DNA of 64,000 nt, taken from IMG/VR virus record IMGVR_UViG_3300007094_000006, positions 32,797 through 96,796 of that record. One strand, given 5' to 3'. Positions 8,884 to 64,000 of the stretch are shown here, piece after piece. The notes under the pieces are model-generated. The model was not told the origin of the DNA, did no database searches, and saw only the letters and a program-made list of their open reading frames with translations. The stretch is from a virus. A program made the translations under genes and the position numbers. Every line of letters starts with the position of its first letter. Positions within the stretch are counted from its first letter, which is position 1.

Positions 8884-10809
8884 ATGAAATATCCAAAAAA
8901 AGTAGCATTTGAAATTTTAGAATCTGTCCATCCTGAAGTTGAACAAAATCAGGAACTTTTTGACATGACTGACGACTTGTTAGGGGGTGGTCCAAGATTA
9001 AAAGATAATTTAGAAAAATATTTAGTTAAAAAACCAGATGAAGATGCTGAAATTTACAAATACCGTAAAAAACTCTTTACTTATGTTCCTATTTTAGGGC
9101 AATGTTTAGCTCAATTATTGAATAGGATGACTGCCTCTAATCATACTATTAATGGTTTTTCAGAAAGTCCTAAACACAAAGAATTTTGGTTTAAATTTAG
9201 AGAATCTGTTAACGGTAATCATCAAAAAGAAAAAGCTTTTATTAAAGATGTTTTCTTTAAACTTTTAAAATATGGAAAAGTATACGCAGTAATAGAAAAA
9301 GATTATTCAGACATTTTACCTACTAATAAAAAAGAAGAAGAAGAATTAGGTTTAATGCCTTATATTGCGTTGTATGACCCTCGTTCTGTTATCCACTATC
9401 AAGAACTTGATGGAAAGCTAAAATGGATAAAAATTAGAGAATTAGAAACCAATTATAGCCCTGTAGGTGAAACGCAATATTTTCTGAAATGGACATTTAT
9501 CGACGATAGTTTTATTACTAGCTATCGTTGTCCAATGATTTATAGTAATACAGGAAAACTTGAACCCGATGTCCAATCGGAGTTTAATTCAAGTTCTTAT
9601 ATGATTCCTTTGTATAAACAAGTTGCCCATGAAAGAGGCACTATTCCTGTTGTAAATATTAAAATTCCTGAAAATCTTTGGGTCACTAAAGAAGCTATAT
9701 TTTTAGTTTTGGAACATATTAGGGTTCATAATAATTTGACATATACCGCAAATGTTGCTGGTCAAATTCAAAGATTATTTACTCCTATGTCTGAATCCGC
9801 AGATAAAATGGTTGACTTGGAAGAAGCCAGAGGTCAAACAGGAAACCATCGAGTATTAATTGGACAAGGATTTACTTTTAATGAAACTACTGGTACTGCC
9901 ATTAATACCATTGCTGGCTATCTAGGAAAACTAGAAAGTAGAATTAAAGATTTAATTTTTTCTAATGGTATTTCTGCTGGTGATGATAGACCAATGCAAG
10001 AATCTGGCGTAGCTAAGAGTATGGACTTTATTAGTCAAGAACAAGCTCTTGCCGCTTACGGTGAACAATTATTGTTTTTTCTTGAAGAATGTTATAAATT
10101 AGTTGCTTTAACTCAGGGCTTTAGTAAAGAGGAAATTTCTCAAATTTCAGTTTCTGGTCTTAATGAATTTGTTTTAGATACTGTTGACACAAAAGTAAAT
10201 AGAATTTCCCTTTTAGAGGCTTTAGACACTCCTATTTCCAATACTGCTATGCGCCTAGTGGTTGAAGACCTACAACGAGCTTTAACTCCTAACGCTTCAA
10301 TTCTTGAACAAGAAATTATCCATAACGAAACTTTACAAGACTTCTCAGATGTCAACCATCCTAAACTTGGTTTAGAAGAACTTACGTCTTTAGTATTGAA
10401 CCAAATCGTTTCTGTTTCTACTGCTCAAGAATTATTAGGCTTTGACCCTTCAGTAGAATGGGACAGAATTAAAGAACAAATGCTTGAAATGCAAGCTATT
10501 CAAAACCCTGAAAATAAAAACTCACCTACAACTGAAACTGAAGAAACTGAAAAACCTGAAGAACCTGAAGAACCTGAAGAACCTGAAGAAAATGTTGACC
10601 CTCTTGAAACTGTGGTAAATCTAGCTAATGCTTTAGCTACTCTTTCTAATGATAAAACTGAAGATATTCTTGCTTCTGTTAATTTTAATGAAAATATTTC
10701 ACCTGACGAAGCAAAACCAATAATTATGATATTAGCTGAAAAATTAGGTAAATTAATTGACGCTACGCCAGAAGAAGTTTTAGAGGGGGTTGGTTATGAG
10801 GAGGATTAG
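8884..10809 (+). CDS. portal protein
   Basis: follows terL; YLVKKPDEDAEIYKYRKK and ESGVAKSMD motifs of siphophage portals; acidic EEP-repeat C-terminal extension. Confidence 0.8.
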   Translation: MKYPKKVAFEILESVHPEVEQNQELFDMTDDLLGGGPRLKDNLEKYLVKKPDEDAEIYKYRKKLFTYVPILGQCLAQLLNRMTASNHTINGFSESPKHKEFWFKFRESVNGNHQKEKAFIKDVFFKLLKYGKVYAVIEKDYSDILPTNKKEEEELGLMPYIALYDPRSVIHYQELDGKLKWIKIRELETNYSPVGETQYFLKWTFIDDSFITSYRCPMIYSNTGKLEPDVQSEFNSSSYMIPLYKQVAHERGTIPVVNIKIPENLWVTKEAIFLVLEHIRVHNNLTYTANVAGQIQRLFTPMSESADKMVDLEEARGQTGNHRVLIGQGFTFNETTGTAINTIAGYLGKLESRIKDLIFSNGISAGDDRPMQESGVAKSMDFISQEQALAAYGEQLLFFLEECYKLVALTQGFSKEEISQISVSGLNEFVLDTVDTKVNRISLLEALDTPISNTAMRLVVEDLQRALTPNASILEQEIIHNETLQDFSDVNHPKLGLEELTSLVLNQIVSVSTAQELLGFDPSVEWDRIKEQMLEMQAIQNPENKNSPTTETEETEKPEEPEEPEEPEENVDPLETVVNLANALATLSNDKTEDILASVNFNENISPDEAKPIIMILAEKLGKLIDATPEEVLEGVGYEED

Positions 10810-61661: not shown

Positions 61662-61979
61662 CTAATCCTCTAAACCGTTCATACAGTCAAAATAGACAAA
61701 ATCACTATCTTCTTTTAGCCACTCTACCGTGACATTGCCCCCATCTCCCAACTCTATGTCAGCTTCATAGTCTAAGATTTCTTGAAAATCCCCGCTATTC
61801 ATTGCCAACCATCTTTCAACGACTTCTCTTTTTTGTTCTTTGGTCAATTCCTTACCTAATCCTGAGTCTTCTAAATTCCCTACATCATAGGGGGATAACT
61901 CTTTTAACATAGCACAAGTCTGACCGTACCATCCTAATCCCACTATTCTGATTATGCTTTTGATTACCGTGTACTTCAT
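61662..61979 (-). CDS. hypothetical protein
   Basis: GGAGG RBS; cassette-type promoter. Confidence 0.72.
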   Translation of the reverse strand: MKYTVIKSIIRIVGLGWYGQTCAMLKELSPYDVGNLEDSGLGKELTKEQKREVVERWLAMNSGDFQEILDYEADIELGDGGNVTVEWLKEDSDFVYFDCMNGLED

Positions 61980-62202
61980 TTTTGACCTCCTATGGTCACT
62001 TCTCTATGTTCCTATTATGTCACTATTTCTCTCGACTTGTCCCTCGCTAGTGGACACTTTCAGAATTGGCACACATAGCCTATTTAAAATCTATATATAT
62101 ATATCACATTTTTTGACCGTCTTTCACCTTACAGTAGCACGTCTTTTGCTCTCTTTGATAGGGTTAGAAACATCATTTTATCTGTTTTTCCCTGCAATAG
62201 CT

Positions 62203-62395
62203 AGTGGTCTAAGTATTTATACCTATAGTATGCCCGTTCTGTCCCCCTTTTGGAGTGGTCTAAGTATTTTTACTCATAGTATGCCTGTACTAACCCCCTT
62301 TTGGAGTGGTCTAAGTATTTTTACTCATAGTATGCCTGTACTAACCCCTCTTTGCAGTGGTCTAAGTATTTATACTCATAGTCTCCCTGTACTAT
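62203..62395. repeat. 51-bp tandem repeat x4 containing AGTATGCCTGTACT (LexA-box-like)
   Basis: units start at 62203, 62254, 62305, 62356; degenerate copies at ~62560 and ~62759. Confidence 0.85.
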
Positions 62396-62536
62396 CCTTT
62401 TTTCGGCTATCCCCTCGCATGGTGCAAACTTCATTTTTGCCCCTGCATTTATTTTTAACTTTCAGCCTTTTCTACACATGGCGCAAACTTCATTTTCGCC
62501 CCTGCATTTCTTTTGGTTGCATTAGGTTGTGATTTG

Positions 62537-62920
62537 TGTCACAGGTTTTTGGGCTTTTTGTGGTCTAGGTATTTATACTCATGGCATCCCTGTCCTGCCC
62601 TCCCCTTGAAGACTATAGTATTCACGGGTTTTTGGACTTTTTGTTTCAATCCAGTTACGATTGAGTTTCGATTGTATTACATTTGTGTTTCAATCGTGTT
62701 ACATTTGTGTTTCGATTGTATTTCGATTGGTTCACACAGGTTTTTGGACTTTGTGTTTGTGGTCTAGGTATTTATACTCATGGCATCCCTGTCTCTCCCT
62801 ATCCGCCTTCCTGTGTACACTATGGTATTCACAAGTTTTTGGTCTTTTTGTTTCAATCCTGTTACGATTGTGTTACATTTGTATTTCATTTGTGTTACAG
62901 GGTTTTTGGACTTTGTGTGT
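62537..62920. repeat. ~199-bp duplication containing 11-bp-period GT(G/A)TT(A/T)C repeats
   Basis: periodic blocks at ~62643-62730 and ~62850-62900. Confidence 0.75.
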
Positions 62921-62958
62921 GTGACCGCCCCGCCTCCTTGTCTCTTCTATGTCTTCTT

Positions 62959-63244
62959 ATTGAGAATGATTCTCATTATCATTTTTTGTCCTCTTATTGA
63001 GAATGATTCTCATTATCCTTTTTCTGTCTTCTTATTGAGAATGATTCTCATTATCATTTTTTGTCCTCTTATTGAGAATGGTTCTCATTATCCTTTTTCT
63101 GTTATCTTATTGAGAATGATTCTCAATATCCTTTTTCTGTTATCTTATTGAAAATGATTCTCAATATCCTTTTTCTGTTATCTTATTGAAAATGATTCTC
63201 AATATCCTTTTTCTGTTATCTTATTGAAAATGATAATCATTCTC
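62959..63244. promoter_or_regulatory. tandem array of 8 Fur-box-like palindromes (37-38 bp period)
   Basis: TGAGAATGATTCTCA 7-1-7 palindrome; copies at 62959, 62996, 63034, 63071, 63109, 63147, 63185, 63223. Confidence 0.8.
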
Positions 63245-63543
63245 CTTTTTCTCATAATCTTCTCATAATCTTCTCATAATGGTTTTTGGTGAAATTTACC
63301 AATTATGGTGAGTCTGGTCAGCATTGGAGTTTCTCTATGCTGAATACGGTTTGCATTTGGTTTTCTCTATGCTAAGATTGCTAAATCTTCAACATTTAAT
63401 GCTTTTTCGCTCCTATCGAAAAATTTTGAGTCGAAAACCTGTCCGTTTTAGTGGTGGTTAATGAATGGTCTGGCTAAGTTCACCCAGATTTTTCCCAGTC
63501 TAGTACAATTTGTCGACGGTTTGCACCTTTAGTGACACCCAGA

Positions 63544-64000
63544 CTGTACTACTTTTAAAAAATCAATAAAACTCAGTCATATCAAGGGTTTTAATTTTTT
63601 GGTACTAATAAAATGCCATTAAAAAATCAATAAAACCCAGTCACTGTATGGGTTGGGTCTGTTTTGTACTATGTAGTGGGGGGGATAACTTTATTTTTTT
63701 TATCCACCCCTACTTGAATCGTCGCATTAAAAAAACCTCTAAAAAAGCTTTTCGTACCTTTTGCAAGCATTTGGAAGCTACAAGTACCTTTAAGTACCTT
63801 GAAATATTTCCTGCCATATTTTAACTGTTTTTAGATTTTTGAAATGTAACACCCAAGGTGTACTACTTTTAAAAAATCAATAAAACTCAATCATATCAAG
63901 GGTTTTAATTTTTTGACACTATTAAAACACCTTAAAAAATCAATAAAACCCAGTCACCGTATAGGTTAGGTCTGTTTTGTACTATGTAGTAGGGGGGGGG
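63544..64000 (+). repeat. repeat locus 4: two diverged arms(+) at ~63544-63728 and ~63859 to window end
   Basis: same arm motifs with variant spacers; truncated by the window. Confidence 0.9.

Follow-up and report, generated by a model that had tools for sequence, protein, structure and literature searches.

A Repeat-Rich, Gene-Free Hub Adjoins the Early Genes

The record IMGVR_UViG_3300007094_000006 of the virus database IMG/VR has a length of 96.8 kb, and its last 64 kb were analyzed as one stretch, which is called the window in the following (coordinates refer to the window, unless record positions are named). Near the right end of the window a gene-free panel of several repeat families is located, one of which is an array of eight Fur-type units that are equivalent in sequence to operators of iron genes in the cyanobacterium Microcystis. 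A BLAST search revealed that the sole cultured relative of the record is the Microcystis siphophage Mic1. The gene at 61662–61979, the first of the leftward early genes, has 76 % identity to Mic1 gp50, and in Mic1 the genes gp49–gp73 are early genes with a single transcription direction (PMC11237433). A preliminary description of the panel, which had been made from the sequence alone, was therefore correct in placing it beside the early genes. In the leftward direction of early transcription the panel precedes the first canonical early promoter.

The repeats were located with Tandem Repeats Finder and with a separate repeat-finding run. All repeat families of the preliminary description were confirmed in place, but it had missed dispersed 51-type units, a super-repeat of about 200 bp, the CACRGG-T5-GG motif, and the full extent of the region. 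The following features were found (a strand is given where one applies):

62014–62043, minus strand: first of the canonical early promoters (GGGACA-18-TG-CATAAT), immediately upstream of the gene at 61662–61979
62203–62406: four units of 51 bp (Tandem Repeats Finder, 90 % matches)
62401–62514: two copies of a 55-nt motif, 59 bp apart, with a GCAAA-N7-TTTGC dyad and GCCCCTGCATTT (repeat search)
62540–62920: super-repeat of about 200 bp, made up of CACRGG motifs, two 51-type units and two blocks with an 11-bp period
62638–62733 and 62845–62907: the two blocks with an 11-bp period, inside the super-repeat
62950–63252: eight Fur-type units of 37/38 bp (Tandem Repeats Finder, 92 % matches)
63249–63280: three units of 11 bp (TTCTCATAATC), a run of hexamers resembling Fur half-sites that closes the Fur-type array
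63530–64000: two direct "arm" units of about 300 bp, a dispersed module family (sequence reading)

The 51-bp unit is composed of an invariant head of about 23 nt (GTGGTYTA-RGTATTT-ATAC...), which contains the palindrome AGTAT-TT-ATACT, and a variable tail, which carries a LexA-like 14-mer. Units of this type recur outside of the tandem block at 62557–62601 and 62756–62800, and one inverted head was found past the end of the record, at record positions 210–226, which is a distance of about 1.45 kb to the right. The CACRGG-T5-GG motif has a length of 24 nt and is present in five copies, all in the super-repeat. A scan of the whole 96.8-kb genome revealed that every motif family is restricted to the gene-free region, which is called the hub in the following. 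[quoted passage not shown]

The hub extends beyond the window. The record is broken in a poly-G run, and non-coding DNA resumes at the record start and continues to about record position 1545; the panel thus makes up the leftmost third of a hub that has a length of about 3.6 kb, spans the record ends, and has the late (structural) module on one side and the early operon, which runs leftward, on the other. The right part, up to about record position 1545, comprises a promoter-bearing core, the inverted 51-type head, and two inverted arms. Mic1 has an equivalent gap between gp49 and gp50, in which no gene is annotated and which is not discussed in the published Mic1 papers. An Rfam scan and a tRNA scan yielded no RNA gene in the hub. 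Both ends of the record lie in a G run within a repeated arm (window 63990–64000; record 1–9), and the genome is therefore probably circular or permuted, its linear form in the record resulting from a break in the assembly.

The Units of the Fur-Type Array Match Iron-Gene Operators of the Host

The units of the array contain the 7-1-7 palindrome TGAGAAT-N-ATTCTCA and a second, overlapping half-site that ends with ATTATC(A). They have the structure by which a Fur box is defined, that is an AT-rich palindrome of 19–21 nt with overlapping 7-1-7 motifs. As a host reference the complete Microcystis chromosome G001 (4.9 Mb) was used, which had been reached via a host-type heptamer repeat. It contains 25 sites of the 7-1-7 family, compared to six for a reversed control, and 17 matches to the variant with a G at arm position 4, as in the phage, compared to none for the control. 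Eight intergenic places with G-variant boxes were found, including those at isiA-isiB, at feoA-feoB, at a futA-like gene for a binding protein and upstream of a sigma-70 gene, and the isiA-isiB operon has three such boxes within 200 bp. The T-variant boxes (TGATAAT-N-ATTATCA; G001 loci L132, L133, L137, and L138) are located upstream of znuA, of folE, which is the GTP cyclohydrolase I gene, and of a paralogue of the threonyl-tRNA synthetase gene thrS. They are the predicted Zur-type regulon, and a single position in the arm distinguishes them from the Fur type. The phage array sides with the Fur variant and not with the Zur variant, as seven of its eight units have the G/A variant.

For the FurA protein of Anabaena a consensus has been derived from footprints (PMC4005646), and in our comparison the isiA box of G001 agreed with it at 15 of 19 positions. 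A Fur weight matrix was built solely from six host sites, which themselves score between 16.9 and 22.0 bits. Seven phage units reached 18.6–22.9 bits and ranked first to seventh in the 96.8-kb genome, ahead of the next best site with 12.9 bits, and the mean maximum score of the shuffled array was 4.3. The preliminary description had recognized a Fur array and had proposed such a matrix scan against shuffled controls; at the sequence level this claim was borne out, as the units match the host isiA, feoA, and futA-like operators in score. A phage Fur-type site shares 18 of 19 positions with the host operator consensus, and a single pattern has 13 matches in 300 bp of the phage and 17 in the 4.9-Mb host chromosome. 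Also in Mic1 the five best Fur-matrix sites of the whole genome lie in the hub. The boxes inside the array overlap weak, leftward promoter-like pairs (TTCTCA-17/18-GATAAT).

The phage units and the cyanobacterial Fur operators (isiA, feoAB, and futA, PMC4005646; the Synechocystis Fur box, PMC8634477) thus have in common an AT-rich palindrome of 19–21 nt with a single central base, the half-site ATTCTCA, the flanks, and equal scores. In contrast, the host promoters have one to three boxes, which lie over the promoter, while the phage has eight head-to-tail copies in gene-free DNA and, unlike at the host operators, no obvious regulated gene is located directly downstream.

Order and Composition of the Hub Are Conserved in Related Phages

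The relatives that were compared are Mic1 (L003), the IMG/VR contig L006, and a third type (L007–L009). All of them have the same motif families in the same order, with differing copy numbers. The shared order starts with the early gene and the early promoter, followed by the 51-bp units, the 55-nt motif, and the 51-type units together with the CACRGG motifs; then follow the Fur-type palindromes, the TTCTCAT-type runs, the direct arms of about 300 bp, the core with the inverted 51-type head, and the inverted arms. Given that three other relatives share the order, chance is far from sufficient to account for the pattern.

The number of tandem 51-bp units varies between two and four, and that of the Fur-type boxes between two and eight (eight in the studied phage, two to five in the relatives). 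Over 24 units in four phages the head of about 23 nt (type copy at 62204–62226) is nearly invariant, while the tail drifts. The 55-nt motif was found in all relatives, and 11-bp runs of the TTCTCAT type like that at 63249–63280 are also present in Mic1, L006, and L008. L006 and L008 lack the blocks with an 11-bp period, and Mic1 retains only three degenerate units of them.

The Same Palindrome Is Arrayed in Phage T5 and in Many Viral Contigs

A BLAST match led to a T5-like coliphage (L011, phage Lindwurm), and the matching stretch is Repeat Region 3 of T5. This part of the terminal repeat is the injection-stop region (Heusterspreute 1987; Wang 2005; Davison preprint, 10.1101/866236), in which DnaA boxes have been described (Davison preprint, 10.1101/866236). 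Repeat Region 3 was found in 581 phage records. Close to the described DnaA boxes it contains the identical 7-1-7 palindrome and variants of it in tandem (L011:2440–2600), as well as a LexA box of the Escherichia coli type (CTGT-N8-ACAG; L011:2309–2324). Neither Fur nor LexA is mentioned in the Davison preprint (10.1101/866236).

Like the hub, the T5 region is a gene-free panel (about 1.2 kb) of several unrelated direct repeats and palindromes that is conserved within its group, and it lies beside the pre-early genes, as the hub of the Microcystis phage lies beside the early genes, and holds boxes for host proteins, which are predicted likewise for the hub. The spacer has 52 bp in L011 and 51 bp in the studied phage, which in both cases is about five helical turns. 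However, the two phages have no homology beyond the palindrome, the T5 region contains DnaA boxes, which are not enriched in the hub, and T5 has fixed ends and a two-step entry, while Mic1-type phages are predicted to be headful packagers. The preliminary description had regarded the panel as undescribed. This does not hold for panels of this kind, as the T5 injection-stop repeat region is a described example; within the literature searched it does hold for a Fur-operator array in a cyanophage.

The contigs of IMG/VR were surveyed for two exact copies of the palindrome at a distance of 10–40 nt. Such pairs were found at 41 loci (L184–L224) with a GC (guanine plus cytosine) content of 29–65 %, mostly in gene-free gaps, compared to 11 loci for the T-variant, which was the only background variant measured. 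The 41 loci fall into several groups, and in the fragments examined they have no protein in common with the studied phage. The neighboring genes include members of the DUF7227, DUF932, and GP88 families.

Five of the loci (L191, L194, L198, L200, and L214) have three to twelve LexA-like palindromes of the cyanobacterial type in the very gap that bears the palindrome, and the density of these is 0.62 per kb inside of the gap and 0.03 outside. The hubs of these loci hold perfect cyanobacterial-type LexA boxes (AGTAC-N4-GTACT); at L198:540–930 about twelve boxes of this type are interleaved with about six Fur-type boxes. The neighboring gene in L200 is closest to T7-like cyanopodoviruses; the cultured cyanopodoviruses S-SRP01 and P-SSP2, which have the homologue of this gene, had no such arrays in the 10–16 kb of each that were examined. 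The type of the LexA box shifts with the host, being that of E. coli in T5 and that of cyanobacteria in the contigs, while the near-universal Fur box is constant, and this favors host proteins over one conserved phage-encoded binder.

In the literature searched no report of Fur-box arrays in phage genomes was found, and relative to it neither the tandem arrangement of host Fur operators in a cyanophage nor the recurrence of such arrays in unrelated viral contigs has a precedent.

Five further contigs (L184, L192, L202, L218, and L224) have a low GC content and encode a homologue of the ribosomal protein S21. In these contigs the palindrome is located 20–40 nt upstream of successive TTGACA promoters, which is the position of an activator site rather than that of an operator.

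Further Motif Families of the Panel

In the preliminary description the tails of the 51-bp units had been proposed to be LexA sites. The two identical units 2 and 3 indeed match the degenerate cyanobacterial LexA consensus (RGTAC-N3-DGTWCB) at 13 of 14 positions, and units 1 and 4 at 12 of 14. However, matches of 13/14 are not above chance (31 in the genome, 28 ± 7 in shuffles), and the two arms are not both conserved: across the relatives the right arm (CTGTMCT) is kept and the left arm varies. The 20 units on the plus strand have one to three mismatches and most inverted copies at least four, and none of the 24 units of the four phages contains a perfect LexA box. On the studied phage alone, a role of the tails in the SOS response is not supported.

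The predicted recA and ssb boxes of Microcystis are themselves half-degenerate with a good right arm (PMC3091678), and the recA box that was seen upstream of recA in G001 (CATAC-N4-GTACT type) is no closer to the consensus than the phage units. Several 51-bp units carry the left arm AGTAT, which is used by recA of Anabaena. The SOS reading was retained in view of the conserved right arm, of a host recA box that is equally imperfect, and of the perfect boxes in the hubs of other contigs; LexA may bind at the unit tails, but it is a weaker candidate there and its binding is rather unlikely.

The blocks with an 11-bp period had been suggested to be sites of two-component regulators. One 8-mer of the repeat is identical to the half-site of the RpaB element HLR1, but the full 8-mer is present in only four units and their neighbors deviate at core positions. 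In the host chromosome HLR1-type pairs with at most one mismatch predominantly have a 2-nt spacer (38 pairs, compared to seven with a 3-nt spacer), which results in a period of 10 bp in contrast to the 11 bp of the phage blocks. The spacing is wrong and the blocks are missing in L006 and L008; RpaB/HLR1 and Pho-type sites were thus rejected.

The CACRGG motif has no match in the host chromosome at up to three mismatches. For the head of the 51-bp units seven weak host matches (three mismatches) were obtained, which have no regulon theme and four of which adjoin transposase genes of the insertion sequence (IS) type or fragments of such genes. An early DNA-binding protein of the phage, for example a helix-turn-helix (HTH) protein such as gp59 or gp73, is the probable binder of the 51-bp heads, of the CACRGG motif, and of the 55-nt motif with its GCAAA-N7-TTTGC dyad.

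Discussion

The best available explanation is that Mic1-like Microcystis siphophages have a conserved control hub without genes, in which an array of host Fur operators is combined with clade-specific sites, and that the studied stretch is the part of this hub nearest to the promoter; on the sequence evidence we consider the chances of this explanation as a whole to be about even. With the array the phage probably reads or soaks up the iron repressor Fur of its host. Sites for host transcription factors in phage control DNA, as they are proposed here, are known and enable the phage to sense the physiology of its host: LexA together with gp7 acts in GIL01, LexA in CTXphi, and Fur at stx1, and marine cyanophages have Pho boxes and NtcA sites. 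In these cases one or two sites are present at a defined promoter, while the hub has multi-copy arrays and several families.

Fur with bound iron would bind to the array as it does at the isiA, feoA, and futA operators. The fixed position and order of the array point to a role in cis, and its high and variable copy number points to a dosage effect. In cis, Fur on the array could act as a block to transcription running leftward into the early operon or could phase it, or the array could help to assemble a complex at an adjacent origin, which would lie at the minimum of the GC skew; iron starvation would then alter early expression or replication. In trans, the amplifying phage genome could draw Fur away from the host operators, which would be about a dozen competitors, and the top-grade boxes of a single phage genome amount to about half the number in the host chromosome (4.9 Mb).

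Several points weigh against this explanation. The host sites were found with a pattern derived from the phage, so that the similarity between host and phage is partly circular and only the location of the host sites at iron genes is independent. No iron-uptake genes are among the host changes in the text and the examined supplements of the Mic1 infection transcriptome, the tables of which are possibly selective. The same palindrome is arrayed in the many viral contigs of very different GC content, and a widespread phage-encoded binder might be an alternative account of these arrays. A consensus scan did not reveal an enrichment of promoter-like sites in the region (15, compared to 10.9 ± 3.6 expected), and the Fur reading accounts for the array but not for most of the panel, namely the 51-bp heads, the CACRGG motif and the 11-bp blocks.

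Two other functions of the array are conceivable, each of them clearly less probable than the control hub. The preliminary description had suggested a decoy or a sensing panel. The array could be a pure decoy without a role in cis, so that replicating phage DNA would titrate Fur, and perhaps LexA, and would derepress iron uptake, supplying iron-dependent phage enzymes such as class I ribonucleotide reductase; NrdA and NrdB are indeed encoded by Mic1. We regard this as rather doubtful, although eight top-grade boxes per genome face about a dozen in the host chromosome, and their number varies among the relatives as would be expected for a dosage trait. That multicopy Fur boxes titrate Fur is the principle of the Fur titration assay (FURTA). 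In this assay and with synthetic decoy sites many operator copies compete with the chromosomal targets, as proposed here, but both are, unlike the phage array, plasmid-borne or synthetic laboratory set-ups. In the synthetic system repeated decoy sites were found to change target expression (PMC3322331). The fixed place and order of the array in a conserved hub by the early promoter suggest action in cis, relatives suffice with only two to three boxes, the reported host responses to Mic1 include no iron genes, and the other repeats have no host counterpart. No natural phage-borne sponge is known to us. An equally doubtful alternative is that the hub is a replication origin or partition site, the repeats being iterons or centromere-like sites for phage proteins (an initiator or a ParB-like protein) and the likeness to Fur boxes being compositional. 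The cumulative GC skew has its minimum at 95–96 kb of the record, exactly at the panel, and its maximum half a genome away at 44–48 kb. The hub is gene-free and lies between divergent modules, the 51-bp spacing is about five helical turns, the period of the blocks is 11 bp, an inverted 51-type head is found at a distance of 1.45 kb, and Mic1 encodes homologues of ParA and ParB. Known origins with iterons and arrays that serve as centromeres (lambda ori, P1 oriR, sopC of F with 12 × 43 bp, and parC of R1 with 11-bp repeats), as well as the baculovirus hr regions, resemble the hub in having tandem protein-binding repeats with helical-phase spacing in gene-free DNA. They differ from it in that the families of the hub vary or vanish among close relatives, that one of them equals a host operator in sequence, and that the candidate origin yielded no cognate initiator or ParB site. 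In addition, DnaA boxes are not enriched in the hub (0.28 per kb, compared to 0.35 in the rest), the 11-bp "iterons" are missing in two relatives, GC skew also tracks the transcription direction, and parS has been placed elsewhere by the authors of the Mic1 study. Furthermore, the identity of 18/19 to the host consensus and the occurrence of the same palindrome in unrelated phages of differing GC content are hard to blame on composition.

Two further readings are far less probable. An entry control as in T5, for which the panel would bind host proteins and pause DNA entry after the early genes, is very unlikely. T5 Repeat Region 3 likewise combines several repeats in DNA without genes, adjoins the pre-early genes and has the 7-1-7 palindrome in tandem, and it adds DnaA boxes and the E. 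coli-type LexA box, but homology to T5 ends at the palindrome. Moreover, TerL of Mic1 groups with P22-like headful packagers, so that the ends would be permuted and no fixed region would enter first, and no long terminal repeats were found in the record, in contrast to the location of the T5 region. Still less credible is that the repeats are functionless products of slippage or are coding repeats in the overlapping open reading frames (ORFs) of the plus strand. It is true that one frame of the 51-bp repeats is open, resulting in ORFs of 135–223 codons in four phages, and that copy numbers vary. But the heads do not vary among the 24 units, which come from four diverged phages, in contrast to the drifting flanks and tails, and the order of the families is conserved. 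A coding function was rejected, as no bias for the third codon position exists (8/6/9 variable columns per codon position), the frame is stopped in L008, and the dispersed copies lie in another frame, one of them on the other strand; also the Mic1 annotators called no gene here. The repeats are thus DNA elements, and the earlier assignment of the panel as non-coding was verified.

If Fur sits on the array, a Microcystis phage would couple its early program or its replication to the iron status of the host or, alternatively, would reprogram iron uptake without a dedicated phage protein. As iron often limits Microcystis blooms, this would have a bearing on when infection succeeds. At least 41 viral contigs without relation to the phage share the tandem palindrome, as does the T5 injection-stop region, and knowing what binds it could explain a widespread class of phage repeat regions that are regarded as "junk". 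It is tempting to speculate that phages of very different hosts carry tandem operator arrays for global repressors of their hosts (Fur, LexA, and others) in gene-free hubs beside their earliest genes, that the type of the box tracks the host, and that the studied genome outnumbers the host Fur operators and thereby derepresses iron uptake or uses the release of Fur as a go signal. This generalization is tentative and we consider it unlikely to hold in full; if true, it would be a protein-free means of rewiring or reading host physiology.

Additional Features of the Hub Core and the Hub Borders

The core of the hub contains a strong promoter (TTGACA-17-TATGAT) at L002:549–577 (L002 comprises record positions 1–1545), which has no ORF behind it. 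It is followed by a hairpin-forming stretch that is kept in Mic1 (L003:6300–7250) and in L006, and promoter and hairpin stretch may give rise to a small RNA or an origin transcript.

In L006 (4512–4892) and L008 (about 9700–10000) the hub contains an extra ORF of about 126 codons, which is located between the Fur-type boxes and the arms and is absent from the studied record and from Mic1. At the right border of the Mic1 hub the TnpB-like "earliest" gene gp49 (L003:7288–8532) is inserted. This insertion is missing from the studied record and from L006, and in the latter the hub directly abuts the gp48 homologue.

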